Below are positions 38,425 to 58,084 of a stretch of 64,000 bases of DNA, one piece after another. The stretch is from contig JAVEWN010000006.1 of the NCBI GenBank assembly GCA_034004515.1, forward strand, positions 6,615 to 70,614, written 5' to 3'. The notes under the pieces are model-generated. The model worked only from the letters and a program-made list of their open reading frames with translations. It was not told the DNA's origin and did not search any database. The translations under genes and the position numbers were made by a program. Source of the DNA: Anaerolineales bacterium (GTDB lineage: Bacteria > Chloroflexota > Anaerolineae > Anaerolineales > Villigracilaceae). The stretch's first letter is position 1; every line of letters begins with the position of its first letter.

Positions 38425-38928
38425 TTAGGCGGGCGGATTTTGCGCGAGGAAAGACTCAATGCAGGCCGCAAGACCGTCGACATCGTCCAGGTCAAACACG
38501 GGGACGCTTGTCTTGAGGGCGATATCGCTTGCATAGGCGATTAAATTCTCAGGAGCGCTGATTGGCTCAGAACTCAACCCGCTCCGTATAATTTCAATCG
38601 AAGGTTTGCCGGCATTCTTGTAACCTTCGACAAGGATTAAATCAACATCGGCAATCTCGCGGACGATTTCATCGAGGGTCAGCTCTTTTTTGAGAAGGCG
38701 ATAAGAGGCCAGCTTATCGGGCGCGGCAATGACGACATGTTCGCTGCCCGCCCGGGCATGCCGCCAGCTATCTTTTTGGGGCTGGTCAATTTCAAAGCCG
38801 GCGTGTGAGTGGTGTTTCACCGTCGCAATGTGATAGCCCCTGCGTTTTAGCTGCGGGATGAGCTTTTCGAGTAGGGTGGTCTTTCCAGCGCCAGACCTGG
38901 CAATGATGGTAATGACAGGAATCGACAT
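38425..38928 (-). CDS. mobB: Molybdopterin-guanine dinucleotide biosynthesis adapter protein MobB
   Basis: Start moved to the ATG at 38928 (GAGGAG upstream). Walker A ARSGAGKTTL, then VKHHSHAGFEID and LILVEGYK as in MobB. The longer ORF would overlap the upstream gene. Confidence 0.85.
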   Translation of the reverse strand: MSIPVITIIARSGAGKTTLLEKLIPQLKRRGYHIATVKHHSHAGFEIDQPQKDSWRHARAGSEHVVIAAPDKLASYRLLKKELTLDEIVREIADVDLILVEGYKNAGKPSIEIIRSGLSSEPISAPENLIAYASDIALKTSVPVFDLDDVDGLAACIESFLAQNPPA

Positions 38929-38936
38929 GAGTCTCC

Positions 38937-39671
38937 TCAGGGCAAGAACAGGATCAAGATCAAGAGAGAGGCCTCCCCAAGAATGAGCCATCCGTCCAGT
39001 GTGCCAATTTTGAGGGGCGTCGTGCGGCTTAGCTCGGGCCGAAAGGCGCGCGCTTCTGCCGCAAGCACAATCTGATCGGCGTGGCGCAGCGAATTGGTCA
39101 GAATCGTCAGCAACAACAATTGGATTGCGCGCCACCAATTGGCGCGCAATCCGCCGCGCATGCGCAGGCTGTGCCAGGCATTCGTGCTGGATTGGCGCAG
39201 GTCGGGCAGCAGGTTGGCCGCCACCCCGATTGAAAAACCCAACCCCTGCAATCCGCCGCGTTCGATCAAACCGGCCAGCTCGGTAATATTGACCGAACTC
39301 GAAAGGCCGTCCGCCGCCAGCAAAATGGCAACGGCCCGCAGGGTCATCTGGGCGCCATTCATCAAGGCAACCGAAGAAACGGGCAAGCCCAAAATCATCC
39401 AATCAGGGCCGCTTTCCGGGACGCCAAAAAACACGTTGACCAGAAACAAGCCGCCCAGGATGAGCAGCCAGCGCGGGCGGGCCAGGCGCTGCAAGGCAAA
39501 CGGATAAGCCGCCACCAGGACCACGAGCGTGAGCAGGGCCGGCACAAGCCCGCGTGAGAGCGGCGGCAGGAGAACCATGCCGATTGCCCACAGAAAAATG
39601 CTCAAATGAGCCAGGCTCCCAAAGCGGGGCCTGGCTTTTTGGGGTTCGCGCATGGATTGGGCCGCTTTCAT
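38937..39671 (-). CDS. ecfT: ECF transporter transmembrane (T) component, CbiQ/EcfT family
   Basis: Multi-pass membrane protein with the C-terminal Arg-containing coupling region (AWHSLRMRG...ADQIVLAAEARAF) typical of CbiQ/EcfT. Confidence 0.75.
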   Translation of the reverse strand: MKAAQSMREPQKARPRFGSLAHLSIFLWAIGMVLLPPLSRGLVPALLTLVVLVAAYPFALQRLARPRWLLILGGLFLVNVFFGVPESGPDWMILGLPVSSVALMNGAQMTLRAVAILLAADGLSSSVNITELAGLIERGGLQGLGFSIGVAANLLPDLRQSSTNAWHSLRMRGGLRANWWRAIQLLLLTILTNSLRHADQIVLAAEARAFRPELSRTTPLKIGTLDGWLILGEASLLILILFLP

Positions 39672-39673
39672 CC

Positions 39674-40114
39674 TTATGGGATTGCGATAATCTCTGTCAG
39701 CTGGCGCGGATTCAGCTTGCCGCCTTCTTTTGGCAGCACCATCCGAAAGGGTGCGTCTTCGGCGCTGAGCGGGCCATCGGCCTGGGCATAGGCCACAATC
39801 GTATCGGGGAGGTTATAAAGCGCGGCATCATAGTTGGCCGAAAAGCCGTCTGCGGCGACTGCTTTGACTGCGGAGAGCGCAGCGGGATCAATGCCGGCAT
39901 CCGCCAGCAAAACTGTCAACGGTACGCCGAGGTAGGTGATACCGTTGATCGTGGCTTGTGCATCCCCGAGCGCCTTGAGATCGGCGTTGGTGTAGGTTTT
40001 TTCAAGGGTGCCGTTCGACACTTTCAAAGCGTCGGCAGCGGGGGTCTGGGCGGCAGGCGCACAAGCTGCCAGGGCCACCATCAAAGCCAAACTCAAAAGT
40101 AAAAAGCGTTTCAT
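39674..40114 (-). CDS. Small lipoprotein with a molybdopterin-oxidoreductase-like (sulfite oxidase fold) domain
   Basis: Lipobox LMVALAAC. GVPLTVLLADAGI...AVAADGFSANY...GPLSAEDAPFRMVLPKEGGKLNPRQLTEIIAI resembles the Oxidored_molyb signature (GVPL..LL, DGY, G-P-x-R-L-V-V-P...K-W-L..I). Confidence 0.55.
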   Translation of the reverse strand: MKRFLLLSLALMVALAACAPAAQTPAADALKVSNGTLEKTYTNADLKALGDAQATINGITYLGVPLTVLLADAGIDPAALSAVKAVAADGFSANYDAALYNLPDTIVAYAQADGPLSAEDAPFRMVLPKEGGKLNPRQLTEIIAIP

Positions 40115-40136
40115 TAGTAGAGTCTCCTATCAGAAA

Positions 40137-40745
40137 TTAGATTTCAAGCGGTTCGGGCAGGGTTGCGCCCAGTCTTATTTTTAAAACTTGTCCAAGTTTC
40201 CAGCCCAGCCAACCGCCCAGGCCGCCGACTGCCAGGTGCAAAATGACCAGGGCCAGCACAATCCACAAGGCGGCCTGAGCCGGCAGCCGAAACAGGCGGC
40301 TGCCCGTATCCAGCAAATCGAGCCAGACGACAAACAGGTTGCGGCCAAACAAAAGCGCGCCGGTCACGAAAGGCTGGACAACCGTCCATAAGGATGCGCC
40401 GGCGCTGGCAAAGATAAAAGCCAGCATGGACGGCTTCGGGAAGATATCCAGAATCAGTTCCGCAACCAGGGCTTCGGTCAAGATGCCGACCATGGGCCCA
40501 ATCAGGATATTGCCAATGCTGAATAATTTCAGCGTCATCGCGATCAGGCCGATGAAAATAGTGGAGCCGCGCCGCGGCACAAACAGACGGGCAATCGAGG
40601 CCACCATTACGCCAATCACCGAAAGCATCATGCCGCTCAAGGGCAAATGGATGGCGTGCAGCACCGAACCCAGGCTGATCTCTACCAGGCCCCACAACGC
40701 CCCAAATACAGCCAGGGTTACGAGTTCGCGGGTTGAAAATTTCAT
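40137..40745 (-). CDS. ECF transporter substrate-capture (S) component, specificity unknown
   Basis: Start set to the ATG at 40745 (MKFSTRELVTLAVFGALWGLVEI...). About 200 aa with six hydrophobic helices, positioned between the ECF ATPase and T genes. Confidence 0.6.
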   Translation of the reverse strand: MKFSTRELVTLAVFGALWGLVEISLGSVLHAIHLPLSGMMLSVIGVMVASIARLFVPRRGSTIFIGLIAMTLKLFSIGNILIGPMVGILTEALVAELILDIFPKPSMLAFIFASAGASLWTVVQPFVTGALLFGRNLFVVWLDLLDTGSRLFRLPAQAALWIVLALVILHLAVGGLGGWLGWKLGQVLKIRLGATLPEPLEI

Positions 40746-40765
40746 AATTGTCCTTTCCACTCAAA

Positions 40766-42274: not shown

Positions 42275-42413
42275 GCCGCGGCCTGTGGGCCGCTGCGCCT
42301 GCCCATTCGAAGGCCCAAGACCTGGTGCGGGCACAGATGCGGATGAATTGCCGCGCTTTTTTGCAAGAAATCTTGTAAAGTTGTCACCTTTGCCTGACTT
42401 TCAAGTAAAGCGA

Positions 42414-42446
42414 TTAAAAAACTCGCCCGGCGGGAACCAGGCGAGT
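42414..42446 (-). terminator. Intrinsic terminator inside the 5' leader of the ECF operon (putative expression platform)
   Basis: Minus strand: ACTCGCCTGG-TTCCCG-CCGGGCGAGT (10-bp stem with one G-U pair) followed by TTTTTTAAT. Lies about 140 nt upstream of the start codon. Confidence 0.6.
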
Positions 42447-42459
42447 TTTGAGGCCGTTG

Positions 42460-42605
42460 CAGGGTCTCAGCTCCTTTCCAAGTCGATCCCATTTGCGGTG
42501 AGACTTCGGGAGGCCGCCCTGTTTCCGGGGAAACCCTTGCCCTGCGCGCAGGGCTGTCCAGTCTGCCATGACTTTCGTTTTAGACAGAAAAGATCGGAGT
42601 GATTT
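42460..42605 (-). ncRNA. Structured leader RNA; candidate Moco/Tuco riboswitch aptamer
   Basis: The minus-strand leader contains, in order, ACUCCGAUC, the hairpins GCCCUG-CGCG-CAGGGC and GUUUCC-GG-GGAAAC, GGCCUCCCGAAG, and UGGAAAGGAGC enclosed by a GUCUCA/UGAGAC helix. These strings match my recollection of the Moco motif core. Not verified with a covariance model. Confidence 0.45.
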
Positions 42606-42725
42606 TGGGGACAGGTTCTTTTGAACTCGTCCCAATTTGATGATACTGAACTTTGCGTTATTTCACATCATGATTTTGGATGGTTTTTCTTATTACCCGA
42701 AAGAGTGAAGCCGGAGCCGGGGGAT

Positions 42726-42941
42726 TCATTTGGTGAGTGATTTCTTCACCTTTTCCAATTCGTCGAGCATGTCCAGCTCTGTTTTTAACTCGTCAGAAAA
42801 GGAGGCGAGATAGGCTTTCACGTTGCGCACAAATTTACCGATCTCACGGGCAGAGCGGGCCAGCCGTTCAGGGCCAAGCACGATCGCTGCCAGCAAGAGA
42901 ATAACAAGCAGTTCATTGCTGCCAATCCCAAAAATATCCAT
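42726..42941 (-). CDS. Twin-arginine translocase TatA/TatB-family protein (second copy)
   Basis: MDIFGIGSNELLVILLLAAIVLGPERLARSAREIGKFVRNVK: an N-terminal TM helix, then G-P, then an amphipathic helix. Confidence 0.85.
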   Translation of the reverse strand: MDIFGIGSNELLVILLLAAIVLGPERLARSAREIGKFVRNVKAYLASFSDELKTELDMLDELEKVKKSLTK

Positions 42942-42942
42942 A

Positions 42943-43746
42943 TCAACCTCGCCTGACCAACGCTGCCAGGAGGATGCTGACCAGGTACAGGCCCATCAGC
43001 GGCAGCATCACCAATCCCATGTTGACCGGGTCAACCGTGGGTGTAACCGCCGCAGCGACGATCGCCATGATCACCAGGGCATAGCGCCAGCCTTCCAGCA
43101 GCTGTTTTGCGGAGACGAATTTCAGCTTGGCCAGGAACATAATCACCAGCGGCATTTCAAAACAGAGGCCGATCCAGAACATTAAGCGTGTGATGAAATC
43201 GAAATAGTTTTCAGGGCGAACCTGGGTGGTAATGCCCAGAAAATTCGTCAGGAAAGGGACTGCCGTCGGCAGCATTACAAACCAGGTGAAAGCCACTCCG
43301 CCCGCAAAGAGGATCGTCGCAAAAGGCACGATGAGCAGTAGCCAGCGGCGTTCGCTCGTTTTCAGGCCGGGCAGGATGAAGGCCATCAACTGATAAATGA
43401 TGAAGGGCATCCCCAGGATGAACCCGCCCAGCAGGGAAACCTTCATAAAGGTGGCGATGTTCTCGGTAATCTCGATTGAGATTAGTTTCTCCGTGCCGCC
43501 GATCGGCGCGGCCAGGTAATCGATAATCTGCTGCGCGAAGATAAAGCTGAAAGCGGTCGCGGCCACCAGCGCGGCAAACGCCTTGAACAGCCTGCGACGC
43601 AGTTCGTCCAGGTGCTGAAGCAAGGGGGCCGAAGTTTCAAGCTGGGTGCTGGCTTTTTGATGGGCGCGTCCAAATGCGCCCAAGTAGCCAGCCCAGTTCC
43701 GTTTGGCCTTCTTCTCCGCTAACGTTTCCTTGTCACGCGCAGACAT
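42943..43746 (-). CDS. tatC: Twin-arginine translocase subunit TatC
   Basis: LLQHLDELRRRL start region, six TM helices, conserved TatC layout. Confidence 0.9.
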   Translation of the reverse strand: MSARDKETLAEKKAKRNWAGYLGAFGRAHQKASTQLETSAPLLQHLDELRRRLFKAFAALVAATAFSFIFAQQIIDYLAAPIGGTEKLISIEITENIATFMKVSLLGGFILGMPFIIYQLMAFILPGLKTSERRWLLLIVPFATILFAGGVAFTWFVMLPTAVPFLTNFLGITTQVRPENYFDFITRLMFWIGLCFEMPLVIMFLAKLKFVSAKQLLEGWRYALVIMAIVAAAVTPTVDPVNMGLVMLPLMGLYLVSILLAALVRRG

Positions 43747-43926
43747 TTATTCCTTCGCGGCTTTATCCGCTGAGGCGTTCTCGTCTGGTTTGCCAGAGAG
43801 TCCTTCGCGGAATTCGCGCATCCCTTTCCCCAATTCACCAGCGATCTTGCCAATCCGTCCCACGCCGAAGAGCAGGACAATGATAACCAGGATGATGAGC
43901 AGTTCGGGCGTTCCCAAGCCAAACAT
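43747..43926 (-). CDS. tatA: Twin-arginine translocase subunit TatA (59 aa, missing from the ORF track)
   Basis: Hand translation: AAGGAG RBS, ATG at 43926, MFGLGTPELLIILVIIVLLFGVGRIGKIAGELGKGMREFREGLSGKPDENASADKAAKE, TAA at 43747-43749, directly abutting the tatC start. Confidence 0.85.
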   Translation of the reverse strand: MFGLGTPELLIILVIIVLLFGVGRIGKIAGELGKGMREFREGLSGKPDENASADKAAKE

Positions 43927-43936: not shown

Positions 43937-45259
43937 TTATATATCCGATAAACGAAAATCTTTAGGGTAGGTCAGGTCAAGTTTGAGTTCCCGCAGGTAG
44001 GTTTCCCCGCCACGCTCCTCGAGGACGTTAGTCGATATACCCACCTCGATATCGAGTTTTTTCAACATCCTGATCTTGCTGACATGAAAAACAAGGCTGC
44101 CGGGCTTGTCACCGGCCCTGTAATCGCGATAGCCATTCTTTTGGAAAGCCGCCTTTGCGATTTCGGCGTCTTTGCCAAAGACCTTGGCCGCCTTCAAGAA
44201 GTAGTCGCGGCGTGAAAAGTATAGCACATTCATTTTAACGGGCTTCAGATCCTGCTGATAAATCTGGCCGGTGTGTTTGTTTTCGAGCGAGCAGTAATGG
44301 ACGCCCAGTTGCAGGCCTTGCTCCAAAGCAAACTCGATCAGGTCGAGGCAGGCCTGCTCACTGCCGGCCACAGGCAGCCCGCCGGCATACCAGTAGTTGT
44401 ACAGCACCCGGAAAGGCCGGGCTTTGATCAGATAGCCGCGCGCGCGGTATTCCTGGGCGTTGTGGAGCGGGAAACAAAATTCGAGCAAGTTGATTCCGAA
44501 GACGCCCAAACGCTCCAGTTCAAGCAAAATTTCCTGCATGGCCTCCCGCGAATCGGGTAAAACCGGCATCTCGACCATGACGTTCGGGATATACTCACGC
44601 GCCAGAGCGATCTGGTCGAAGGTGTGCTGGCGCGCGGTGGGCGTATCTTCAACCCGAATGCTGAAACGGATTTCATCCATGCCGGCCTCTTTGAAGGCCT
44701 GCAAGGTCTCACGCTCCAGCTGATCGCCGCAGGTGTAAAGACGCGTATAGGCTTTGGGAAAGTTCTGGCGGGCATGTTGGAAAAAGTTGATCGTTTCTTC
44801 TTTGTAAAGCAAGGGTTCACCGCCGGTCAGAGCCAAATGCTGGGCAGGCCCGCCGCTCTGTTGGAGGGCGTCCAGTTCGGCGGCTACGTCGCGTTTATGC
44901 TCGCGGTGATGCTGATAGTCTTCCTGGTTCGGGTTGAAACAGAAAAAACAATCGCGGTGACATTTAAGCGAGATAAAGAATGTTCTGCTGCCAATGCCGC
45001 GCTGGCAAGCCAGGCAACCGCCCGAGATGCGCTGGGTATAGACGCTTTTCGCATCATTGCGCACGATTGCGCCGCGTTTACCCAGATCAGACAGGCGCTG
45101 GGCCACCTGCTGGCTGTCATCCAGCGCTTCAACGTCGAGGCCCATCTGGCGCACCTGATCCATGAAATCCTGATAGATTTGGACGTACTGCCCGGCCTGT
45201 GACCTCAGTTCAGGGTTGCGGATGGAGGCCAGTGTACTCTCGTTGATCTCAATAATCAT
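43937..45259 (-). CDS. Radical SAM protein, unknown substrate
   Basis: CX3CX2C cluster CHRDCFFC at about residue 100 and a GGEPLL SAM-binding motif. Overlaps the upstream gene by 11 nt. Confidence 0.85.
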   Translation of the reverse strand: MIIEINESTLASIRNPELRSQAGQYVQIYQDFMDQVRQMGLDVEALDDSQQVAQRLSDLGKRGAIVRNDAKSVYTQRISGGCLACQRGIGSRTFFISLKCHRDCFFCFNPNQEDYQHHREHKRDVAAELDALQQSGGPAQHLALTGGEPLLYKEETINFFQHARQNFPKAYTRLYTCGDQLERETLQAFKEAGMDEIRFSIRVEDTPTARQHTFDQIALAREYIPNVMVEMPVLPDSREAMQEILLELERLGVFGINLLEFCFPLHNAQEYRARGYLIKARPFRVLYNYWYAGGLPVAGSEQACLDLIEFALEQGLQLGVHYCSLENKHTGQIYQQDLKPVKMNVLYFSRRDYFLKAAKVFGKDAEIAKAAFQKNGYRDYRAGDKPGSLVFHVSKIRMLKKLDIEVGISTNVLEERGGETYLRELKLDLTYPKDFRLSDI

Positions 45260-46451
45260 CGGGCTGCTCCACTGCTACAGGTTTGTTCCGTTTAAATCCG
45301 GGCGGCAGGACAGAACCAAACCGGTTTTCACGGCGGTATTGGCACAGCTCGCACAGCCGCGTGGCCCCGCGTTTTGCCGTCAGCGCGGCGCACTGCTCAC
45401 ATTTGATCAACTCACCCGCCTGGAGGACAGCGATGGCGTCCCCAAAAATATCCGCAAACTGGGGCGAACGGTCGAGGCGGATGGCATCCGGCGCGCAAAC
45501 GTGGACGCACAATCCGCAAGCCACGCAGTCCGGCGCGGCGAATTTTAGGGCGAAGGTGGTTTGGTCTTCATCTTTTTCAAACTGCAAAGCGCCGGTTGGG
45601 CAGGCCCGCGCGCAGGCGGCGCAGGCGGTGCAGGCTGCACTGACTTGGAGCGAGCCGAATCCAAACTCTCCCAGGTTTAAGTTTTCAGCCGCGCTGGGGG
45701 CAGGCAAATGGCCGAGTGCGTTGACGGTGCGTTTGTGGTTGCGCCCGGGGCGCGGGCCAGCCTGAGTCTGTCCATATTGCATGGCGCGCGCCATCGCAAC
45801 CTGACCCTGGCGGGCCAGCATCCGAAACAGGTCGCGCCGCGAGAGCGGCGGGTTGCTGGCGTTCCAGAGCGGGCGCTCGATTGCCTGGTCGAGGCCGGAG
45901 ACGCAGCGCAACGAGTCGCCGCGACCCCAGGCTGCAAGCAGCTCTTTGGCGCGCGCAACCTGGGCTTCGACTTCGGGCTGCAAAGCGGCCCATTTGCAAG
46001 TGGAACAGGCATCAGTCCGGGCCACGACCTGTTCGAGGCCGAGCGCGGCCAGGGCCAGGTAAGTCCCGCTCCCCAGCCCGGCGAGACAGCCTCGAACCTG
46101 GATGCCCACGCTCGTTTGGGCGATGCCGGCCTCGCAAGCAGGATTCAACTCACAAAGCAGTTCGAGGGTCTGATCTTCCAGGTGGGTGACAGCGTTCAGA
46201 AGCGGCGTGACCGCATCGTCCGCGCTGTACGCGCCGACCGGGCAGACCGTCAGGCAGGCCAAACAGCCCTCGCATTTTTTCGGGTCGAGGCTTGGCGGTT
46301 GGCCGGGCGTAATCGCGCCGACCGGGCAGATATTAAAACATGCCGCGCACTCTGAATGCTGGTCACGCGTATGCAGGCAGCGTTCAGCATCCAAAATGAC
46401 TTGCGAACGGTCAAGTGAGGCAAACCGTTCGGCAGCATCGAGCAGACTCAT
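45249..46451 (-). CDS. Multi-cluster 4Fe-4S ferredoxin-domain protein (about 400 aa)
   Basis: Start moved to the ATG at 46451 (ATGA overlap with torD-like). Motifs CAACFNICPVG, CEGCLACLTVCPVG, CTACAACARACPTG and CVACGLCVHVCAPD, plus extra Cys pairs. Confidence 0.8.
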   Translation of the reverse strand: MSLLDAAERFASLDRSQVILDAERCLHTRDQHSECAACFNICPVGAITPGQPPSLDPKKCEGCLACLTVCPVGAYSADDAVTPLLNAVTHLEDQTLELLCELNPACEAGIAQTSVGIQVRGCLAGLGSGTYLALAALGLEQVVARTDACSTCKWAALQPEVEAQVARAKELLAAWGRGDSLRCVSGLDQAIERPLWNASNPPLSRRDLFRMLARQGQVAMARAMQYGQTQAGPRPGRNHKRTVNALGHLPAPSAAENLNLGEFGFGSLQVSAACTACAACARACPTGALQFEKDEDQTTFALKFAAPDCVACGLCVHVCAPDAIRLDRSPQFADIFGDAIAVLQAGELIKCEQCAALTAKRGATRLCELCQYRRENRFGSVLPPGFKRNKPVAVEQPDDY

Positions 46452-47152
46452 AGCGTGGCTACCTTCGGCAGGGGCACTTGCAGCATCTGGGCCGCGGCCA
46501 ACAGCGCGCCATGCGCCAGATGGGCCATTCCGCGATAGAAATCGGTCGAGGCGTGCTGCTTGGCCAGGGTCGCCCAAGCCGGCCCCCAGCGCAGGAGATG
46601 CTCCAAGAGAAAATCACGCTGAGCTTGCAGGACATCGTCCAGCGATTGCTGATCTGCCTGTTCGATTGCCCGCAAGCCGCGCGAGGCAAGGTGAGACACA
46701 AAAAGCAGTTCCAAACCGATGTGATCGTCTGGTTCCTTGTTAATTTGTTCGATCTGCATCCCAAAACGCGCATACCAGTTGCGCACCTGAATGGTTTGCT
46801 CCTGGAAGACGAGCCGCTCGTTGTTGAAGTAAACCGATTCCCAGGGAACCGCGGGCATGGAACCCAAGCCAATAAACAAGCGGGTATAGTCCATTCTCAG
46901 ATCATTAAATTTCTGGTCAGAAATGCCGCCGGCCTGTTCGTCCGCCCACTTTTGGAGAATTTCCAAGCCGCGCACGATTTCGATCTGGGCTGCGCCAAAC
47001 GGCGATTCGCTAAAGACCTCGTCGCTGACCAATTGATTCAGCCATTCACGGTCTGGCTCCTGGTAGAGCGCTCTGCCGAGCAAGCTGAATAGTAATACTT
47101 CTCCGACAAGTGCTGCCGTTAAGTCGTCTGTTAAGATCATTTTATTGTTCAT
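46448..47152 (-). CDS. TorD/DmsD-family molybdoenzyme maturation chaperone
   Basis: DYTRLFIG...PWESVY...DHIGLELLF pattern typical of the TorD/DmsD family. Confidence 0.8.
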   Translation of the reverse strand: MNNKMILTDDLTAALVGEVLLFSLLGRALYQEPDREWLNQLVSDEVFSESPFGAAQIEIVRGLEILQKWADEQAGGISDQKFNDLRMDYTRLFIGLGSMPAVPWESVYFNNERLVFQEQTIQVRNWYARFGMQIEQINKEPDDHIGLELLFVSHLASRGLRAIEQADQQSLDDVLQAQRDFLLEHLLRWGPAWATLAKQHASTDFYRGMAHLAHGALLAAAQMLQVPLPKVATL

Positions 47153-50209: not shown

Positions 50210-51106
50210 CTACAGACCAATACCCACTTTCGTTGCGTAGAAGATGTAGCGTCCCATCGTCTCGCCTAGCAGGACAAGGATGAAGGCGCTGTAGACCACA
50301 TTCGCCAGGACCGCTTCCCGGCCCACGACAGAAGCATTCTTATACATATAGAAGGCCAGCAAGCCCGCTCCGGCGAAGACAAAGACCAGGCGCAGAACAA
50401 ACATGCCGCCCAGCGGGCCGATCATCAGACCGAGGCTCTCCAGCGCGGCTGCGCCCTGGGTGGAAAGGTAGATGGCGTAGACTGGCAGGACTACGAACTC
50501 AACGCCCACCAAGACGATCGCCGCCAGCGCGATACCACGCAGGGCGTCGCGAAACAGGCTGAGTTGGATCTCATCTTTGGAACGGGTTGCCACCAAGGCC
50601 ACGGCCACCAGCAACGCGCCCAGCAAAAGGGAGGTCGTGATGAAGGTGATCGGCGTGGCAAAGGTATTCCAAGCCGGTTGGGTGCGGATCATGTAGACCT
50701 GGGCCATGGCATAGGTCTGAAACAAGCCGACCGCGGCGGCAACCCAGCCAATGACCGTGCGAACGGAATCGGATGATATTTTGCGCCACTGCATGACGGT
50801 GTAAATCCCCGCCAGGATCACAAAGATCACGACAATAATCACCTCACGGCTCAGCCAGGATGAGCCCAGGTTGGGGACAGCCCGGGTAATGTTAAGCGGG
50901 TTTCCCAGGTGCAGCAGGGAGGCCAGCAGAGCCAGCAGAATGATGGGCACGACGATAAAAAGCGGCTTATCGGTCAGCCGATCGGCCTGTTCCAGGCCCG
51001 CTTTGCGGACAGCATAGGTGCGAACGATCAAGAGGATGATCAACGCGCCAGTTGAAACCTGTCCGAGGATAGTAAAGATGAGCAAAGACCATTCACGGAT
51101 ATCCAT
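50210..51106 (-). CDS. DmsC-type membrane anchor subunit (8 helices)
   Basis: Polytopic protein immediately after the DmsB-like gene. MDIREWSLLIFTIL..., SSWLSRE and MAQVYMIRTQPAWN motifs are shared with the paralog at 55069-55989. Confidence 0.8.
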   Translation of the reverse strand: MDIREWSLLIFTILGQVSTGALIILLIVRTYAVRKAGLEQADRLTDKPLFIVVPIILLALLASLLHLGNPLNITRAVPNLGSSWLSREVIIVVIFVILAGIYTVMQWRKISSDSVRTVIGWVAAAVGLFQTYAMAQVYMIRTQPAWNTFATPITFITTSLLLGALLVAVALVATRSKDEIQLSLFRDALRGIALAAIVLVGVEFVVLPVYAIYLSTQGAAALESLGLMIGPLGGMFVLRLVFVFAGAGLLAFYMYKNASVVGREAVLANVVYSAFILVLLGETMGRYIFYATKVGIGL

Positions 51107-51118: not shown

Positions 51119-51733
51119 TTAATCGATATTCAGAACTTTGCCGCCGCCAGATTTGGAGGTGCGGGTATCCTTGTGGGGAGTGTAGACGATGGCGGGCCGG
51201 GTCAGGGACGGGTCAGGCATGGGAGCCGGGTTGTTGAGCACTCCGTGTTTGGCTTTCAGTTCATTGATATCGCCATATTCCAGTGCGCGGTAAGGGCAGG
51301 CTTCGACACAGGCCGGCTTTCCGCCCTTTTCCTGAAGCTCGATGCAGAAATCGCACTTCGTCATAACGCCCGCATCCTCGTTGAACTGCGGCGCACCGTA
51401 CGGGCAAGCCCAGGAGCAGTAGCGGCATCCGATACATTGATCGGGATTGATGAGAACGATCCCATCCTCCCGTTTGCTGATGGCAGAGGCCGGGCAAACT
51501 TCCATGCAGATCGGCTGTTCGCAGTGCATACAGGCGGTGGAGACGAAGTAATGGAAGACGCCGCTCGGTACGCTCTGGTCGCCATCCTGAATCCATTCGC
51601 CGCCGCCGTATTCGTAGACACGCCGCCAGCGCACCCCGGTCGGTAAATCTTTGCGGTCTTTGCAGGCAATCTCGCAGGCTTTACAGCCTGTGCAGTTTGC
51701 CAGGTTAACATAGAAACCAAGTTGTTTAGCCAT
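51119..51733 (-). CDS. 4Fe-4S electron-transfer subunit of a DMSO-reductase-family enzyme (DmsB-like)
   Basis: Four Cys groups: CTGCKACEIAC, CMHCEQPICMEVCP, CIGCRYCSWACPYG and CDFC...CVEACP. Confidence 0.9.
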   Translation of the reverse strand: MAKQLGFYVNLANCTGCKACEIACKDRKDLPTGVRWRRVYEYGGGEWIQDGDQSVPSGVFHYFVSTACMHCEQPICMEVCPASAISKREDGIVLINPDQCIGCRYCSWACPYGAPQFNEDAGVMTKCDFCIELQEKGGKPACVEACPYRALEYGDINELKAKHGVLNNPAPMPDPSLTRPAIVYTPHKDTRTSKSGGGKVLNID

Positions 51734-51744: not shown

Positions 51745-54153
51745 TTAAGCCTTCTCAACCTGCACCAGGTTGGTGTGTTGCGGGTTGCCCTTGGCAAAAG
51801 GTGTCGGGTGATACTTGGTTAACGTGTTCGTACAACCACGAATATCCACACCATTTTCGTCCGGGGTAAACCAGGCCCCTTGCGGCAGGCTGGTGACGCC
51901 TGGGCGCAGGCGGTTTGTAACATACGCCGGAACCCGAACCACGCCGCGATCATTGAATATTTTGACCATATCGCCGTTCTTGATATTGCGCAGATCGGCA
52001 TCGAGCGTGTTCATCCATAAGGACTGAACATGCGCTTCCTGCAAAGCAGCCACATTATCAAAGGTGGAATGGGAACGTTGAACCGCGTGGTGACCAACCA
52101 TCAAAAGCGGGTACTTCTCGCGCAGCGGATCGCTGACCCCTTCCCACTCAGGGATGTATTGCGGAATGGCAGGAATCTCTTGCGGGCTATTCAGCGCGGC
52201 CAGGGTCGGCGAGTAGACCTCGATTTTACCGGTCGGGGTTCTGAGCGGATTGGCAACCGGGTCTGCGCGGAAGTCTTTGCCCGCAATGATCCCGCCGCCG
52301 CCAGTTTTTTTGTAATAGCCGATCTCTTTGAACTCTTCGTAGGTTGGGAAGTCTTCGTTCTTTTCCCGGGCAACCGCTACCATATCGCGCAGCCACTCTT
52401 CACGGGTGGTGTGCCCGTCGCGGAATTCTTCGCCCAGGCCGAGACGGTCTGCCAGCTGTTCGGCCACCCAAAGCACATCTCTGGTTTCGTAGAGCGGCTC
52501 GATTAGCTGATGGTTGAAGAGCACAAAGTTCGATTTGCCTTCGCCGTTTCCACCGGTGATGTTTTCGGCTTCGAAGTGGGTGGTATCAGGCAAGAGGATA
52601 TCTGCCATCTTGGCGCTGTGGGTCATGACGACATCTGCGACGACGATAAATTCCAACTTGGTGTCGTCTTGCAGCATTTTGGTGGTGGCGTTGACGTCCG
52701 AGTGCTGATTGGTGATGCAGTTGCCAGCCCAGTTCCACATGAATTTCATGTCTGAGCTCATTTTGTCCGCGCCCTTAATCAGGTCACGCAGCCCGGAGGT
52801 CATCTCGTGGCCGCGCTCGATGAAATCGGGCCACATATAAACAGAGATGGTGGTTTTTACGGGATTTTCGCCAGCCGGGAAACTGCCGATGCTGATGTTT
52901 GTGCCGCCGCTTGGGCGAGTGCCCGTGCCGCCGCCAGGGATACCGAAATTGCCGGTCATCGCGGCCAGGATGGGCAGGGCCCGGACTGGCTGTTCGCCAT
53001 AGGCCCGGCGCTGCATTCCCCAGCCCTGAATCATGGCACAGGGTTTGGTGCTGGCAATCTCATGCGCCAGTTTAATGATGCGTTCGGCAGGAATGCCGGT
53101 GATGGGGGCAGCCCAGGCGGGCGTTTTCGCGGTTTTATCCGCGCCGCGCCCCATGATATAAGCCATGTATGAGGAATTAGGCGGAGCGCCTTCGGGCAGC
53201 GTATCTTCGTCAAAGCCGACCGCGTGGGTTGCCATGAACTCCTTATCGTACATCTCATCCTTGACCATGACATACGCCATGGCGTCCATCAAGGCGTTGT
53301 CGGTTCCAGGGTAGATCGGAATCCAGTCTGCTTCCAAGGCAATCGCTGTGTCATTGTAGACCGGGTCCACGACAATGAACTTGGCCCCGGCTTCTTTTGC
53401 CATCAAGTAATGGTAGCCCATGCCTTTGCCGCCGGCTCGGGTAACCATGCCGTTGTCAGAGACGAGCAGCACCAATTTGGAATTGACGAGGTCATCGGCG
53501 GAATTGCTGCCCATGTTGGTAATCAGAGGCATGGCAGCAGAATAGCAAGCCGTGCTGTAAGTTCCATAGAAATTGACGTAGCCGCCGAACAAGTGCATCA
53601 TCCGCGCAATCGGGCCAACGCCCTTATAGGTGTTGTCGATCCCGCCCGCAATCTGACCGGTAGCGTAGTTGTAGTAAATTGATTCGTTGCCGTATTTTTC
53701 TTTAACTTCCTTCAACTTATTCGCAATCGTATCCAGGGCTTCTTCCCAGGAAATGCGCTCAAATTTTCCTTCGCCGCGTTTGCCAACCCGTTTCATGGGG
53801 TATTTCAAGCGTTCTGGCGAATAAACGCGCCATCGTTGAGAGCGGCCGCGCAAACACGGGATCGCCTTGGGTTGTTCAAAGGTGTCGACCGGGTCCTGGT
53901 CCGGCAACATGCGTACAACCGTGCCATCTTTGACTTCGGCCCAAAGAATACAGCGGCTGCCGCAGTTATGATAGCAGCTGGTGGTCATAATCTCGCTGCT
54001 CTCGGCAGCAGCAGCCTGAGCGGCTTTCAAGCCATAACTTACGCCTCCGGCCAATGCAGCGGTGCCGCCCAATGCCGCGCTCCACTTCAAGAAGCTGCGC
54101 CGGGAGAGAACCGTATCGGTCAGGGTTTTTGTTAGGAAATCCTTTTCAGTCAT
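51745..54153 (-). CDS. Molybdopterin oxidoreductase catalytic subunit (DmsA/YnfE-like), Tat-exported
   Basis: Twin-arginine signal SRRSFLKWSAALGGTAALAGG. N-terminal FS0 cluster motif CYHNCGSRC. 802 aa with DMSO reductase family layout. Substrate not assignable. Confidence 0.9.
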   Translation of the reverse strand: MTEKDFLTKTLTDTVLSRRSFLKWSAALGGTAALAGGVSYGLKAAQAAAAESSEIMTTSCYHNCGSRCILWAEVKDGTVVRMLPDQDPVDTFEQPKAIPCLRGRSQRWRVYSPERLKYPMKRVGKRGEGKFERISWEEALDTIANKLKEVKEKYGNESIYYNYATGQIAGGIDNTYKGVGPIARMMHLFGGYVNFYGTYSTACYSAAMPLITNMGSNSADDLVNSKLVLLVSDNGMVTRAGGKGMGYHYLMAKEAGAKFIVVDPVYNDTAIALEADWIPIYPGTDNALMDAMAYVMVKDEMYDKEFMATHAVGFDEDTLPEGAPPNSSYMAYIMGRGADKTAKTPAWAAPITGIPAERIIKLAHEIASTKPCAMIQGWGMQRRAYGEQPVRALPILAAMTGNFGIPGGGTGTRPSGGTNISIGSFPAGENPVKTTISVYMWPDFIERGHEMTSGLRDLIKGADKMSSDMKFMWNWAGNCITNQHSDVNATTKMLQDDTKLEFIVVADVVMTHSAKMADILLPDTTHFEAENITGGNGEGKSNFVLFNHQLIEPLYETRDVLWVAEQLADRLGLGEEFRDGHTTREEWLRDMVAVAREKNEDFPTYEEFKEIGYYKKTGGGGIIAGKDFRADPVANPLRTPTGKIEVYSPTLAALNSPQEIPAIPQYIPEWEGVSDPLREKYPLLMVGHHAVQRSHSTFDNVAALQEAHVQSLWMNTLDADLRNIKNGDMVKIFNDRGVVRVPAYVTNRLRPGVTSLPQGAWFTPDENGVDIRGCTNTLTKYHPTPFAKGNPQHTNLVQVEKA

Positions 54154-54256
54154 TCCTCGCCTCCATTGTATTGAGTAGATGTTTCCATTCGCTCACGAAG
54201 AGCTGCCCCTCTATCCGCAATGAAAATCTGTTTTTTATTATTTTCCATTTTCACTC

Positions 54257-54313
54257 TCCTGATAGTTTTAACGGCCAGACCAGCCATATTTGTGCTTTTA
54301 TACACTATCAGGA
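54257..54313 (-). promoter_or_regulatory. 10-bp inverted repeat pair in the dmsA-like promoter region
   Basis: TCCTGATAGT (54257-54266) and ACTATCAGGA (54304-54313) are exact reverse complements 37 nt apart. They bracket a TATAAA element on the minus strand, 105-160 nt upstream of the ATG at 54153. Confidence 0.3.
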
Positions 54314-54387
54314 TACCCCCAACCCCGCCCGCTCACATCCTTCTGTGGGACAATCCGGCCTCACCCGAAAGAGTGATCCCTGAAAAA

Positions 54388-55044
54388 CTATCCGTCGCGC
54401 GGCATCACCAAGCCGTGTTTCATGGCATACGTAGCTGCCTGAGTCCGATTCTCAAGCTGTAATTTTCCCAAAATACTTTTTAGATGGCTTTTAACCGTGT
54501 TAATCGAGATCGAAAGCTTCTCGGCAATGATCTGGTTCGTCGCGCCGCTTGCAACCAGTCGCAGCACAAATAGCTCTCTTTCGGTCAGGGCCTGTTCGCC
54601 CTTCTCGTCATCCACCATCCGGTTGGCAACCGCCTTCAAGAGTTTTCCGGCAATGGCGCGGGTCATAGCCGGCTCGCCGGAGATGACTCCCTTCAGGAGG
54701 TCGAACAATTCATCCGCGTCCAGGCTTTTCAGCAAATAACCTGCGGCTCCCACCTGAACCGCCTCGTATAGATGTCCATCTCTTTCGGAGGAGGTCAGCA
54801 TCACAATCGAGATTTCAGGAAAGCGGGCGTGGATCTTCTTGGCAGCCTGCAAACCATCCATCTCCGGCATATAAATATCCATCAGGATCACGTCCGGGTG
54901 CAGTTGCTCAGCCATCTGAACGGCTTCTTCGCCGGTTTCCGCCTCACCGATCACTTCGACCAGGTCCTGACGGGTTCGCATCAAGCTGATCATCCCCTGG
55001 CGGAACAGTTTATGGTCATCGGCAATCAATACTTTTATGGGCAT
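54388..55044 (-). CDS. NarL/FixJ-type response regulator (REC + LuxR HTH)
   Basis: KVLIADDHKLFRQG and DVILMDIYMPEMDG receiver motifs. C-terminal HTH LTERELFVLRLVASGATNQIIAEKLSISINTVKSHLKSILGKL. Confidence 0.92.
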   Translation of the reverse strand: MPIKVLIADDHKLFRQGMISLMRTRQDLVEVIGEAETGEEAVQMAEQLHPDVILMDIYMPEMDGLQAAKKIHARFPEISIVMLTSSERDGHLYEAVQVGAAGYLLKSLDADELFDLLKGVISGEPAMTRAIAGKLLKAVANRMVDDEKGEQALTERELFVLRLVASGATNQIIAEKLSISINTVKSHLKSILGKLQLENRTQAATYAMKHGLVMPRDG

Positions 55045-55068
55045 GGGTACTCACTTTCGCTATTGGGG

Positions 55069-55989: not shown

Positions 55990-56002
55990 AAAACCATTCA
56001 CC

Positions 56003-58084
56003 TCAATTTGTCGGGAAAGTATCTGGCTTGGCCGCAAGCCAGGAAGGGTTGTTTGGCAGCTTTTCTTGCGGCAAACACGGTAAAGCGCACTCAACCCGCG
56101 TGCCTGCCCCGGGGAAAGAGTGGACCGTTACACAGCCCTGGACACTGGAAGCGCGTTCCCGCATGGTCTCCAGGCCAAAACTGCGCTTTGAACCCTGGGC
56201 CGCAAAACCAATCCCATCGTCCAATACGGACATGTGAATGTAGTCCGTTTGCTGCTCGTTTTTATAATCGATCAGTACCTTCACGTGGGTCGCCTGGGCG
56301 TGCTTGCGGACATTAGCCAGCGCTTCCTGAAGGATGCAGACCAACTGCACCTCGGCCACAGAAGCAAGATTCAGGTTTCCCTCAATCTTGTTGATAAATT
56401 CAGTTTCAATGCCGGTCTGGATTCCAAATTCCTGCAAATATTCATCGATGGCAGAAGCCAATCCCTTTTCGCTGGCGAGCGTCGTCCGCAGGCTGAGGAT
56501 GTTCTCGCGCACATCGGCATTTGCGACCGAAATCGCCTGCCGCATTTGTCCAAGCTCTGTCTCCAGGTCTGCGCGGCGGTCTTGTTTGAGCAAAGCGCCC
56601 AAGGTCTGAACCTGCAAATTTAAATAACCCAGCACTTGGGCCAGGCCATCGTGCATTTCGCGCGCGATGCGGGAGCGCTCTTCAGTGATCGATAAAGACT
56701 GCAATTGTGAAGTCATCAGGCCATGCTGAAGCGCGATCACGACCTGATCGGCCATATACTCCAGCCAGATTAAATCTACATCCGAATAGGCCTTGGCCTC
56801 TTTCCGGGCAATCCAAATTCCCCCAATCGGTCTATGATCCAAGGCAAAAGAAACCACCGCAACCGCCTCCATTTTATCGTGCGAAAAAAGGCCGGCCTGG
56901 CTCAAATCTGCCAACACTTCCTCTCCGGCAGAGCGGAAGGAGCGGGTCGATTGCAAAGCATTCAGAATGAGCGCGCTCTGGATGGGAGTGGGCGCAGCCA
57001 GCAGTTCGGTTTGCTGGCCGTTTGAATAACATTTCAGTTCCAGGGAAGAATAATCGTCCTGGAGCAGCCCCAAGCCGGCAAAGTCCGAATTCAATAAGTT
57101 GCGCGCGTTCTCGATGATATAGAGCAGGATGCCGTCCACATCTTCGAGTTCGGTGATCTTGCGGTTGATGCTGACCAGGACCTCTGCCCAATTTTCAGCA
57201 ATCTGGCGGGCTGCGATCTGGCTCTCGATGGCCGCTTTTTGAGCGCGGTCGCGTTCCATCTCCAAAAATACGAGTTGGCGTTTGCGAAGCGCGTCGAACA
57301 CGCCCAGGCCTCTCACCATAAAAATGGTGAGCGTAAGCGTAGAGAGCAGCCGCCAAAATTGGATCGGCATGCCGGTTACCTCCAGCACTTTTTGATAATC
57401 GAGCCAGGGAGTCATCAGCCCATACGACGGCACCCCGCCGATATGTTCGCCGATAAAAGCGTTACTGATGACGCGGTCATAGTTGTAATACGAAGCCGGC
57501 CCATACGGCGCAGCCGGGACAATCAACCCCAAGACAAAGGCCTCGAACAAAAAAGCCAGGCCGGTTGCCAGCATTAAGCCAGAAATATCGATCAGGCCCT
57601 GTTTTCTTTGGGCGTGCGCCTGGCGCAGAAAACCAATCCCTGCCATGATACTGCCTGGCAGATAAAGCAGATATCTCGACCAGATATCGATTGGAATTTC
57701 AATCGGTGAAGGGGTGATAAACGTGGTGGCCGCATAGGCGAAGACGTACGAAATCGGGACGATCAAAATACCGAGGATAAATATCGCCCAGGTTGGGAGC
57801 GGCGTCAGGTCTTTTAAGATGTGCCAGCCAAATATCAAAAGCAGCAAGCCGCTGAGTGGTTGGGCAACCACCCGCAAGACCTTTAAGACGATCAGGTACT
57901 CGTCGACACTGCCGCCCACCAGGAACATATCGACCCAGCTGGTAATCCCGCTTACAAATCCAAAGGCGGCCAGCCACGGCAGCTGCTTTTTAAGTGCGAA
58001 ATCCCCGCTTTGCCGAAATTGCAAATACGCAGCCAGCCCCAATCCCCCAAAACACAGCCCGTTAACAAAATAGATAATCATCAT
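56003..58084 (-). CDS. Membrane sensor histidine kinase (multi-TM sensor, GAF-like domain, HisKA_3, HATPase)
   Basis: About 7 N-terminal helices. NarX-type H-box ARELHD-like REMHDGLAQVL, N-box EALANVRKHA, G-box VLDDGIGF ... GAGTRVE. Confidence 0.9.
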   Translation of the reverse strand: MMIIYFVNGLCFGGLGLAAYLQFRQSGDFALKKQLPWLAAFGFVSGITSWVDMFLVGGSVDEYLIVLKVLRVVAQPLSGLLLLIFGWHILKDLTPLPTWAIFILGILIVPISYVFAYAATTFITPSPIEIPIDIWSRYLLYLPGSIMAGIGFLRQAHAQRKQGLIDISGLMLATGLAFLFEAFVLGLIVPAAPYGPASYYNYDRVISNAFIGEHIGGVPSYGLMTPWLDYQKVLEVTGMPIQFWRLLSTLTLTIFMVRGLGVFDALRKRQLVFLEMERDRAQKAAIESQIAARQIAENWAEVLVSINRKITELEDVDGILLYIIENARNLLNSDFAGLGLLQDDYSSLELKCYSNGQQTELLAAPTPIQSALILNALQSTRSFRSAGEEVLADLSQAGLFSHDKMEAVAVVSFALDHRPIGGIWIARKEAKAYSDVDLIWLEYMADQVVIALQHGLMTSQLQSLSITEERSRIAREMHDGLAQVLGYLNLQVQTLGALLKQDRRADLETELGQMRQAISVANADVRENILSLRTTLASEKGLASAIDEYLQEFGIQTGIETEFINKIEGNLNLASVAEVQLVCILQEALANVRKHAQATHVKVLIDYKNEQQTDYIHMSVLDDGIGFAAQGSKRSFGLETMRERASSVQGCVTVHSFPGAGTRVECALPCLPQEKLPNNPSWLAAKPDTFPTN

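Follow-up and report, generated by a model that had tools for sequence, protein, structure and literature searches.

A run of molybdoenzyme-related genes was analyzed in a 64,000-nucleotide stretch of DNA from an Anaerolineales bacterium (assembly GCA_034004515.1, contig JAVEWN010000006.1, positions 6,615 to 70,614; hereinafter referred to as the window). The run, which occupied positions 38425-58084 on the minus strand, probably represents a molybdoenzyme supercluster that is conserved in the Anaerolineales lineage of the Chloroflexota and is composed of three functional units: a sensor module, a dimethyl sulfoxide (DMSO) reductase-type enzyme encoded with accessory and export genes, and an importer operon preceded by a molybdenum cofactor (Moco) riboswitch. 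The enzyme in itself was ordinary; the most unusual part of the cluster was the riboswitch-gated importer with its small lipoprotein. No prior description of a dms cluster in Anaerolineae or Villigracilis was found in the literature searched.

In the proposed scheme, the first unit, a NarX/NarL-class kinase and response regulator with a DmsC-like membrane protein, would presumably activate a dms promoter in the 234-nt gap upstream of dmsA. The second unit would produce a menaquinol-dependent DmsABC-type S-/N-oxide (or selenate/tellurate-type) reductase together with a cell-surface WD40/three-heme protein. The DmsD chaperone would bind the twin-arginine translocation (Tat) leader of DmsA, a polyferredoxin and a radical S-adenosylmethionine (SAM) protein would serve as cytoplasmic maturation factors, and a TatA-TatC-TatB translocase would export the folded DmsAB. 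In the third unit, a P3-type Moco riboswitch and an intrinsic terminator would halt transcription at a plentiful supply of Moco, whereas under Moco scarcity readthrough would reach the genes for MobB and for an energy-coupling factor (ECF) importer made up of EcfAA', a YkoE-like S component, EcfT, and an extracytoplasmic lipoprotein with a truncated sulfite oxidase (SUOX) fold.

Gene content and layout of the cluster

Gene identities were assigned from an open reading frame (ORF) map together with Pfam, NCBIfam, and Rfam searches of the window. Eighteen genes and a leader RNA were identified (Table 1), all on the minus strand and in the order given by an earlier note that had been made from the sequence alone. 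The same genes, up to the start of ecfA, were obtained by an independent gene caller on a 33-kb metagenome contig (L086) that encodes a DmsA identical to that of the window; this locus ends at the ecfA start. Both flanking genes were on the plus strand, so the strand run was sharp-ended: a secreted protein with a peptidoglycan-binding domain was encoded on the low side (36409-38319) and a prolyl oligopeptidase on the high side (58242-60419).

The run was made up of three transcription-unit-sized blocks rather than one. Block 1 contained the kinase, DmsC-like, and regulator genes, with internal gaps of at most 24 nt. Block 2 followed after the 234-nt gap and contained ten genes from dmsA to tatB (11.4 kb), which overlapped or were separated by 0-12 nt, except for a gap of approximately 70 nt before the WD40 gene. 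Block 3 began approximately 110 nt past tatB with the leader RNA and a terminator, followed by ecfAA', the S component, lipoprotein, ecfT, and mobB genes at gaps of 2-22 nt. The tatB-ecfA gap, which contained the riboswitch, was approximately 450 nt long. The short gaps described for the whole run in the earlier note were thus present nearly everywhere, but not between the regulator gene and dmsA or between tatB and ecfA. The co-location of regulation, catalysis, chaperoning, Tat export, and a molybdenum-linked supply line, which the same note had pointed out, was borne out by the gene identities.

Table 1. Features of the molybdoenzyme cluster in the window, listed 5' to 3' along the minus strand.
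Feature	Position	Strand	Basis
Sensor histidine kinase, NarX/NarQ class	56003..58084, or start 58054 by independent caller (L086)	-	Pfam, NCBIfam
DmsC-like membrane protein, 306 aa	55069..55989	-	PF04976, E = 5e-16
NarL/LuxR-type response regulator	54388..55044	-	PF00072 + PF00196
Regulator-dmsA intergenic region, candidate operator/promoter	54154..54387, 234 nt	-	Alignment of 15 orthologous regions
dmsA, bis(molybdopterin guanine dinucleotide) (bis-MGD)-type molybdopterin catalytic subunit	51745..54153	-	TIGR02166, Pfam, Tat leader, Ser ligand
dmsB, 4Fe-4S ferredoxin-domain electron-transfer subunit	51119..51733	-	TIGR02951, PF13247
dmsC, membrane quinol-oxidizing anchor	50210..51106	-	PF04976, E = 2.9e-31
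WD40/three-heme exported protein, 991 aa	47165..50140	-	Pfam
DmsD/TorD-family Tat-proofreading chaperone	46448..47152	-	PF02613, E = 7.5e-32
Polyferredoxin, 400 aa, NapF-like	45249..46451	-	Pfam
Radical SAM protein, 440 aa, CHRDCFFC = CX3CX2C	43937..45259	-	PF04055/PF13353
tatA, 59 aa	43747..43926	-	Sequence reading; PF02416 on gene call in L086
tatC	42943..43746	-	TIGR00945, 189.2 bits vs. cut-off 132.7; PF00902
tatB-like, 71 aa	42726..42941	-	TIGR01410, 58.2 bits vs. cut-off 56.5; PF02416
Moco riboswitch aptamer, P3-containing	42451..42613	-	RF01055
Intrinsic terminator, expression platform	42417..42449	-	13-bp hairpin + U6 directly after P1
FmdE N-terminal remnant, 29 codons, TLQDFLQKSAAIHPHLCPHQVLGLRMGRR	42295..42381	-	tblastn, 48-54% identity to relatives' FmdE
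ecfAA', fused EcfA-EcfA' ATPase, 502 aa	40766..42274	-	TIGR04521, TIGR04520
Putative S (substrate-capture) component, 202 aa	40137..40745	-	Relatives' Pfam matches, AF2, Foldseek
Lipoprotein, 146 aa, lipobox LAAC, truncated SUOX fold	39674..40114	-	PF00174, E = 4.7e-7
ecfT (CbiQ-family coupling component)	38937..39671	-	PF02361, 42.9 bits vs. cut-off 25
mobB, molybdopterin-guanine dinucleotide synthesis adaptor GTPase	38425..38928	-	TIGR00176, 142.5 bits vs. 76.2; PF03205

Conservation among relatives

For comparison with related genomes, TatC was used as an anchor, because its gene has a roughly central position in the run and TatC is not cassette-specific. Eighty loci from species-representative genomes (referred to by L numbers) were searched with all 18 window proteins, and a feature was counted only where the flank sufficed. 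The genomes were nearly all metagenome-assembled genomes (MAGs) labelled Anaerolineales or Chloroflexota, including some labelled Candidatus Villigracilis or Villigracilaceae, and their TatC was 50-82% identical to that of the window.

A tatB-like gene was found next to tatC in 75/79 loci, a DmsB-type gene in 48/50, a DmsD-family gene in 51/55, the polyferredoxin gene in 54/59, and the radical SAM gene, located directly upstream of tatA, in 55/67. Genes for DmsC (38/50), the WD40-heme protein (32/52), the ECF ATPase (34/65), and MobB (11/41) were likewise found next to tatC, and the riboswitch was detected within 1.2 kb downstream in 57/75 loci. All of these features were missing from the four most distant loci (TatC 50-58%), which were labelled Ardenticatenia, Anaerolineae, Anaerolineales, and Chloroflexi. 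The cassette order was kept around tatC in most of the 80 genomes, so the dispersal considered in the earlier note was not seen.

That note had suggested a horizontally exchangeable module, in the sense of a self-contained respiratory unit that is passed as a whole from genome to genome, brings along its own Tat system and transporter, and uses an unknown oxyanion or S/N-oxide acceptor. We consider this very improbable. The gene set is indeed complete and lies on one strand, and the flanking genes differ between genomes. In addition, DmsA and DmsB of the window shared 85-87% identity with their counterparts in L013 and L018, compared with only 50-76% for the remaining cassette proteins; other lineages filled the same scaffold with A subunits of 30-38% identity or with a Psr/Phs-like enzyme, and two MAGs contained two cassettes each (L015/L024 and L047/L056). 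These points would fit a mobile unit. However, the same order was found in dozens of species of one order, in which tatC identity fell smoothly from 82% to approximately 61%, and the composition of the run matched that of its flanks in the comparison of GC content and codon usage that the earlier note had proposed. Relative synonymous codon usage (RSCU) correlated at r = 0.967 between island and flanks and at r = 0.978 between the two halves of the flanks. GC content at third codon positions (GC3) was 0.667 in the island and 0.698 in the flanks, and no GC step was present at the run borders.

A Pfam scan of flank ORFs, which covered approximately 15 kb beyond the low end of the run and 6 kb beyond the high end, revealed neither an integrase nor a transposase. 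These ORFs were ordinary, encoding a UvrD-type helicase, an aminotransferase, parts of a peptide ATP-binding cassette (ABC) transporter, an NAD-binding protein, and a MarR regulator. A search for border direct repeats revealed nothing shared that was longer than 10 nt, and the only tRNA in the window (8294-8364, minus strand) was 30 kb away from the cluster. The substrate class was also narrower than the mobile-module proposal implies, being limited by TIGR02166 membership and the Ser ligand of DmsA described below. A mobile island was therefore unsupported, given the lineage-wide presence, the matching composition, and the lack of border repeats and of mobility genes among the scanned flank ORFs.

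Cassette contigs of the Anaerolineales type were also found in MAGs filed as Syntrophothermus, Gammaproteobacteria, and Desulfobacterales (L027, L043, and L074). Transfer across phyla was rejected for these contigs in favor of probable mis-binning, because the values of L043 were identical to those of the Anaerolineales MAG L044.

DMSO reductase-type enzyme and variable enzyme slot

DmsA exceeded the cut-off of TIGR02166 (dmsA_ynfE; 963.6 bits, cut-off 777.7; NCBIfam), and DmsB exceeded that of TIGR02951 (239.7 bits, cut-off 214.1). Over its full length, DmsA was 48% identical to DmsA of Escherichia coli. The Ser residue in its YSTA motif aligned with DYS(147)TA of Rhodobacter sphaeroides DorA, in which Ser147 is the Mo ligand, and the motif also aligned with YGDYSSA of E. 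coli DmsA. The inspection of active-site ligands suggested in the earlier note thus identified a Ser at the DorA Ser147 position. DmsA further contained a twin-arginine leader, SRRSFLK (PF10518), and an N-terminal Cys group, CYHNCGSRC (FS0 site), that aligned with CTVNCGSRC of E. coli DmsA.

From these features, the enzyme is predicted to be a reductase of the DmsA/YnfE subfamily with a putative acceptor range of S-/N-oxides or selenate/tellurate-type compounds. The substrate class is not open-ended, because of the TIGR02166 membership and the Ser ligand, which narrows the unknown substrate of the earlier note. No single acceptor could be assigned, since the scores against the equivalog models for DmsA, YnfE, and YnfF (811/1600, 838/1675, and 790/1650) were approximately half of the cut-offs.

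The enzyme resembled those encoded by E. coli dmsABC and ynfEFGH-dmsD (ynfI) in having a Tat-exported, Ser-ligated bis-MGD subunit, a four-cluster DmsB, a DmsC anchor, and a DmsD-family chaperone. In contrast to the E. coli operons, that of the window additionally encoded Tat components, a WD40/three-heme surface protein, a polyferredoxin, and a radical SAM protein; upstream of it, a dedicated two-component system was encoded along with an additional DmsC-like protein. The dms operon of E. coli is controlled by FNR and ModE, and its tat operon is unlinked.

The catalytic subunits varied among relatives. In L008 and L009, TatC was as close to that of the window as in L013 and L018, yet DmsA was 60-64% identical. 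Other lineages had longer DmsA-like proteins (867-892 aa) that fell below the TIGR02166 cut-off. In one subclade, the cassette scaffold held the Psr/Phs-like enzyme and a DsrP/NrfD-like anchor, and the radical SAM and WD40 genes were absent; the loci concerned were L039 and the related L037, L040, L046, L052, and L080. In L039, a gene of the SclA/cysteine-desulfurase family (6710-7876) was located upstream of the polyferredoxin gene, and a similar ORF was present at the same position in L040. Among the parts of the cassette, only the catalytic subunits look to have been swapped, judging from these alignments. The Tat leader of the divergent A subunits (30-38% identity) was nearly the same as that of the window (…LTRRSFLKWSAALGGTAALAGG), and this near constancy fits a shared DmsD and Tat system that serves a variable enzyme slot.

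Heme protein, chaperone, and putative maturation factors

The WD40/three-heme protein was composed of a signal peptide, a WD40 propeller, three CXXCH heme c motifs, CarboxypepD_reg domains, and a C-terminal transmembrane anchor. The three motifs were at conserved positions among the orthologues of approximately 1000 aa that were listed. Cassettes without the WD40 fusion carried two c7/c3-type multiheme cytochromes and a 615-655-aa CarboxypepD_reg protein homologous to the C-terminal part of the WD40 protein (e.g., L023, 2459-6513; L066, 1791-5802; and similar loci). An exported heme module thus appeared to be a constant partner of the DmsABC enzymes, as these proteins fill the slot when the WD40 protein is missing. 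Its putative function is an extra electron route or surface scaffolding.

A cytochrome-linked, surface-exposed DMSO reductase is encoded by dmsEFABGH of Shewanella. The window shares with it a DmsAB-type reductase encoded together with a multiheme c-type cytochrome component. Unlike the Shewanella system, the cluster encoded no outer-membrane porin or decaheme protein, contained a DmsC quinol anchor, and had a tail-anchored heme protein fused to a WD40 propeller and CarboxypepD_reg domains.

The DmsD/TorD-family chaperone scored 89 bits against the DmsD model of NCBIfam, below the cut-off of 162. The polyferredoxin consisted of two 2x[4Fe-4S] domains with extra Cys motifs and matched NapF weakly (TIGR00402, E = 3e-10, below cut-off); its gene adjoined the tat genes even in loci without the radical SAM gene. 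The radical SAM protein gave generic NCBIfam matches, a Protein Data Bank (PDB) sequence search returned a viperin-like core only, and no described family was found for it in these searches. Its gene accompanied only DmsC-anchored enzymes among the relatives' loci. No specific Pfam or NCBIfam family was found for the radical SAM protein, polyferredoxin, S component, or WD40-heme protein. Putatively, the polyferredoxin and the radical SAM protein are cytoplasmic maturation factors, and the polyferredoxin may alternatively be a redox partner.

Tat translocase

The tatA start codon was 10 nt past the stop codon of the radical SAM gene, and the gaps from dmsA to tatB did not exceed approximately 70 nt, which makes co-transcription of the tat genes with the enzyme likely. 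Tat genes located beside a Tat substrate are also present in a monoderm bacterium, Bacillus subtilis (phoD-tatAdCd). In both cases the tat genes are adjacent to, and probably co-expressed with, the substrate gene; in the window, in contrast, they form a TatA/TatB/TatC trio that closes a molybdoenzyme operon at its 3' end.

It is possible, if somewhat doubtful, that the clustering has no dedicated function, i.e., that tatACB is the sole Tat system and serves housekeeping, that the riboswitch-ECF-mobB unit works as a Moco regulon of general scope, and that the two are near the main Tat substrate by chance. The tatACB genes, which the earlier note took to be private to the module, may indeed simply encode the only Tat system of the organism, since the closest tatC of nearly every relative was at this position and two such loci were found in only two MAGs; the riboswitch unit, moreover, has its own control and in relatives holds moaA, fmdE, or a gene for a molybdate-type binding protein. 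The likely co-transcription described above is at odds with a chance neighborhood, and the arrangement outlasts a change of the catalytic enzyme type, which suggests selection for the linkage.

The two MAGs with paired tatC loci were those containing L015/L024 and L047/L056. Both L015 and L024 had a full dms cassette; of the other pair, only L056 did, as the upstream sequence of L047 was too short. The pairs represent either a real duplication, which would support one Tat system per cassette, or a mixed bin.

Sensor module and regulator-dmsA intergenic region

The kinase contained a multi-transmembrane N-terminus followed by GAF, HisKA_3, and HATPase_c domains. The closest NCBIfam model of the regulator was NarL (168.6 bits, below the cut-off of 250). 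The DmsC-like protein encoded between them was 32% identical to the DmsC of the operon (BLASTP). Conservation of the module was analyzed by a metagenome scan with the DmsC-like protein (loci L088-L149), in which the DmsC-like gene had the kinase gene on its upstream side in 40/40 loci and the regulator gene on its downstream side in 38/38. From this arrangement, the DmsC-like protein is a fixed third member of the sensor module. To our knowledge, no case of a quinol-anchor homologue as a fixed partner of a two-component system has been described, and the triad suggests a sensing mode with such a homologue as co-sensor.

In the 234-nt region between the regulator gene and dmsA, alignment revealed a 16-bp palindrome, TCAC(C/T)C-N4-G(G/A)GTGA, at approximately 54361-54376, just past the regulator stop codon. 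The blocks GGATG, GTAT..C(C/T)T, and AGGAG were also invariant across the 15 regions. A structured leader RNA was considered for this region and rejected, as there was a single hairpin and covariation was almost nil; for the latter reason, the invariant blocks were treated as DNA sites. In the window, a 33-codon upstream ORF that followed AGGAG overlapped the dmsA start, and its start codon was not conserved in the other loci.

Moco riboswitch and downstream genes

The leader RNA named in the earlier note proved to be a genuine Moco riboswitch by its Rfam score, covariation, and recurrence. It matched RF01055 at 42454-42611 with 54.6 bits (gathering score 36) over model positions 1-135. A covariance model built from an alignment of 36 orthologous leaders scored 131 bits in the window and placed the element right after tatB in 57/75 loci. 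Two-sided compensatory changes were found in 23 of 36 base pairs, and 92% of the alignment cells of the 36 sequences were paired, compared with 36-52% when the partner column was slid. All five pairs of the helix matching P3 covaried. The terminator that directly follows P1 had a predicted fold of -26.6 kcal/mol (z = -4.5). Most likely, the riboswitch terminates transcription when the cofactor is abundant, as its predicted expression platform suggests.

Moco RNAs that contain P3 accompany Moco genes, and those lacking P3 accompany genes of the tungsten cofactor (Regulski et al., 2008; PMC2408646). The element of the window belongs to the same aptamer family as the riboswitches of that study, with P3 present and molybdenum-related supply genes downstream. 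It differed from the cases of that study in its platform, a transcription terminator, and in its downstream transporter, which was of the ECF type instead of a molybdate/tungstate system such as ModABC; in addition, Chloroflexi were not among the phyla of that study. The literature searches revealed no earlier case of a Moco riboswitch that precedes an ECF transporter.

All 34 ECF loci were preceded by the riboswitch. In loci without ECF genes, the same riboswitch position preceded an FmdE-family gene with a TauE/SafE-family permease gene, MoaA, or both. As either gene set is located behind the same riboswitch, the slot downstream of tat can be regarded as a Moco-supply slot. In L052, a second riboswitch preceded genes for FmdE and a molybdate-type binding protein, and the same pair was found in L040 by tblastn.

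A riboswitch 7-8 kb downstream of tat was observed in L040 (18950-19112), L052 (18557-18719), L060 (19413-19582), L041 (8511-8671), and L043/L044 (18459-18619). It was additional to the tat-adjacent copy in L040 and L052, and the sole match in L060, L041, L043, and L044. The distal element was followed by FmdE and the molybdate-type binding protein in L040 and L052 and by FmdE and a TauE-like permease in L041, L043, and L044; in L060, FmdE was the only gene that followed before the locus ended.

In most relatives, the ECF operon included an NTPase_1 gene, and many also had genes for a TehB/TPMT-like methyltransferase and FmdE. The window has lost all three; of FmdE, a remnant was located between the riboswitch terminator and ecfA, and the TGA of its frame overlapped the ecfA ATG. 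Since the relatives have a full FmdE and usually NTPase_1, both genes have been deleted in the lineage of the window.

The earlier note had described the transporter as private. The transporter is instead predicted to be controlled by cofactor status through the Moco riboswitch rather than by the regulator of the enzyme, and it therefore looks like a general Moco-supply unit that is not dedicated to this enzyme.

Components of the ECF importer

The fused ATPase EcfAA' matched TIGR04521 with 373.8 bits (cut-off 330) and TIGR04520 with 372.9 bits (cut-off 315), and two stretches of the protein matched each model. For the S component, no Pfam match of its own was obtained and a PDB sequence search was empty. 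When it was aligned with 36 relatives, 21 of the 37 proteins matched PF09819 (YkoE-type) and 8 matched PF09605. Its AF2 model had a pLDDT of 86.5 and seven helices, and the top three Foldseek matches were FolT and RibU at a weak level (E = 0.5-0.9; template modeling (TM) score 0.44-0.51).

The lipoprotein gene was located between the S and T genes and was found in 29/53 loci, compared with 30/54 for the S component. By sequence, the lipoprotein weakly matched the molybdopterin-binding domain of sulfite oxidases, and its AF2 model had a pLDDT of 86. Its best Foldseek matches were PruR (7kom: E = 5e-7, target-normalized TM score 0.74, root-mean-square deviation 2.4 Å), followed by the Moco domains of sulfite dehydrogenases and YedY. 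The lipoprotein lacked the Mo-ligating Cys, its only Cys being the lipobox residue Cys18, and contained no Trp. The invariant residues in the alignment included the basic K84, K133, and R137, and R124 was nearly invariant.

PruR is a small periplasmic pterin-binding protein (approximately 140-170 aa) with a truncated SUOX fold, one example of which was solved with neopterin bound; a PW motif replaces the Cys, and the pocket includes N102, Y104, and W160 (PMC11194511). The lipoprotein resembled the PruR structures (PDB 7kom, 7kp2, 7kos, and 7rkb) in being a small, secreted, single-domain protein of this fold without the Mo-ligating Cys. It differed in the absence of Trp, so that neither the PW motif nor W160 is present and a Tyr/Trp pterin sandwich is impossible. 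No sequence similarity between the lipoprotein and PruR was detected, including in a search of PDB sequences with a lipoprotein profile. It also had no DcpA-type GGDEF/EAL partner; its neighbors were ECF components in a transporter operon. Judging from the models, the lipoprotein may be a small extracytoplasmic ligand-capture protein and is not a member of the PruR family.

The module resembled the group I ECF systems CbiMNQO/NikMNQO and YkoEDC in that a single operon encodes ECF-type ATPases, a T component of the CbiQ family, and a putative S component that is small, multi-helical, and a distant relative of YkoE. It differed from these in its fused ATPases, the added SUOX-fold lipoprotein, and control by Moco instead of thiamine pyrophosphate (TPP) or B12, and the relatives of the window further add NTPase_1, the TehB/TPMT-like methyltransferase, and FmdE.

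Candidate cargo of the importer

Molybdate or a related oxyanion (tungstate) was considered the most likely cargo, with chances of about even; a pterin is unlikely, and a cargo other than these is rather unlikely too. Molybdate is the default cargo of a transporter repressed by Moco. ECF genes and the TauE/SafE-family small-anion permease occupied the same slot in 34 and 9 loci, respectively, with no overlap; such mutual exclusion is as expected of non-orthologous replacement and points to a small-anion cargo. The basic invariant residues of the lipoprotein would count for an oxyanion. A weak indication in the same direction came from the TehB/TPMT-like methyltransferase of some relatives, an enzyme type tied to oxyanion detoxification.

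Alternatively, the ECF module could serve salvage by importing a pterin from the Moco pathway, i.e., cyclic pyranopterin monophosphate (cPMP), molybdopterin, or Moco. The PruR-like lipoprotein would capture the pterin outside the cell and pass it to the S component, and MobB and FmdE would help to finish the cofactor. Most of the cargoes known for ECF transporters are vitamins or precursors of cofactors, and folate, a pterin derivative, is one of them. An RNA that senses Moco would be a fitting control for a salvage route repressed by its end product, and genes for MobB and FmdE are linked to the module. No Mo-ligating Cys is present in the lipoprotein, whose closest structures are those of PruR, one of them with neopterin bound (PMC11194511); how pterins cross bacterial membranes was stated to be still unexplained in a 2026 review (PMC13259868). 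On the other hand, the PruR pocket cannot be present in a protein without Trp, and the resemblance to PruR did not extend to a match at the sequence level. The exclusion between ECF genes and the small-anion permease points away from a pterin, and MoaA was encoded near the ECF genes in several genomes, from which de novo Moco synthesis appears to be kept. Moco and its precursors are, moreover, very oxygen-labile. No report of an ECF importer for a pterin or a Moco precursor was found in the literature searched.

Thiamine or hydroxymethylpyrimidine (HMP), suggested by some JGI names of S-component homologues, was rejected as the cargo, as the ECF genes of the window and of 34/34 ECF loci follow a Moco riboswitch and are located with MobB/FmdE.

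Several points weigh against the three-unit reading with a riboswitch-gated oxyanion importer. The operon boundaries are predicted from gene spacing, and a scan for consensus promoters and terminators was uninformative, since promoter counts were at chance and the obvious riboswitch terminator was missed. The roles of the radical SAM protein and the polyferredoxin are guesses from gene position. The S component is a putative assignment, with no Pfam match of its own and a weak structural match. The lipoprotein is an anomaly, because ECF transporters are defined as lacking an extracytoplasmic binding protein. No ECF transporter that carries an oxyanion such as molybdate was reported in the literature searched. 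Furthermore, a ModA-type binding protein was encoded under a riboswitch beside the ECF system in L052 (and in L040 by tblastn), so a second molybdate importer would be partly redundant.

Other features of the window

On the low side, the mobB end of the cluster was abutted by plus-strand genes for secreted or unknown proteins (30315-38319). These encoded a two-component-regulator-propeller repeat protein, an LppM-like lipoprotein, a 636-aa protein with a terminal peptidoglycan-binding domain, and three ORFs without a Pfam family. A peptide/oligopeptide-type ABC transporter cluster was encoded on the minus strand at 12046-21394, comprising two permeases and two very large binding proteins of family 5 (854 and 656 aa). 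Toward the high end of the window (61000-64000), GC content fell to 0.48-0.53. A SnoaL-like gene located there (62473-62910, plus strand) had a GC content of 0.436 and a GC3 of 0.425, far below every other gene measured.

Significance

In the supercluster, the Tat machine, the putative maturation factors, and the molybdenum supply are physically tied to a variable molybdoenzyme slot in a large, mostly uncultured order. The combination of a conserved Tat leader with a variable enzyme is a natural plug-in arrangement, which could guide heterologous expression of molybdoenzymes. The ECF importer is a candidate answer to how pterins or molybdenum enter such cells, and either cargo would add a substrate class for which no report was found among ECF transporters. 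If pterin uptake were true, these Chloroflexi would obtain the cofactor or precursors of it by scavenging within their community. In the weaker version, if true, the module would import an oxyanion, molybdate or tungstate, as an ECF-type transporter, and no report of this was found either.

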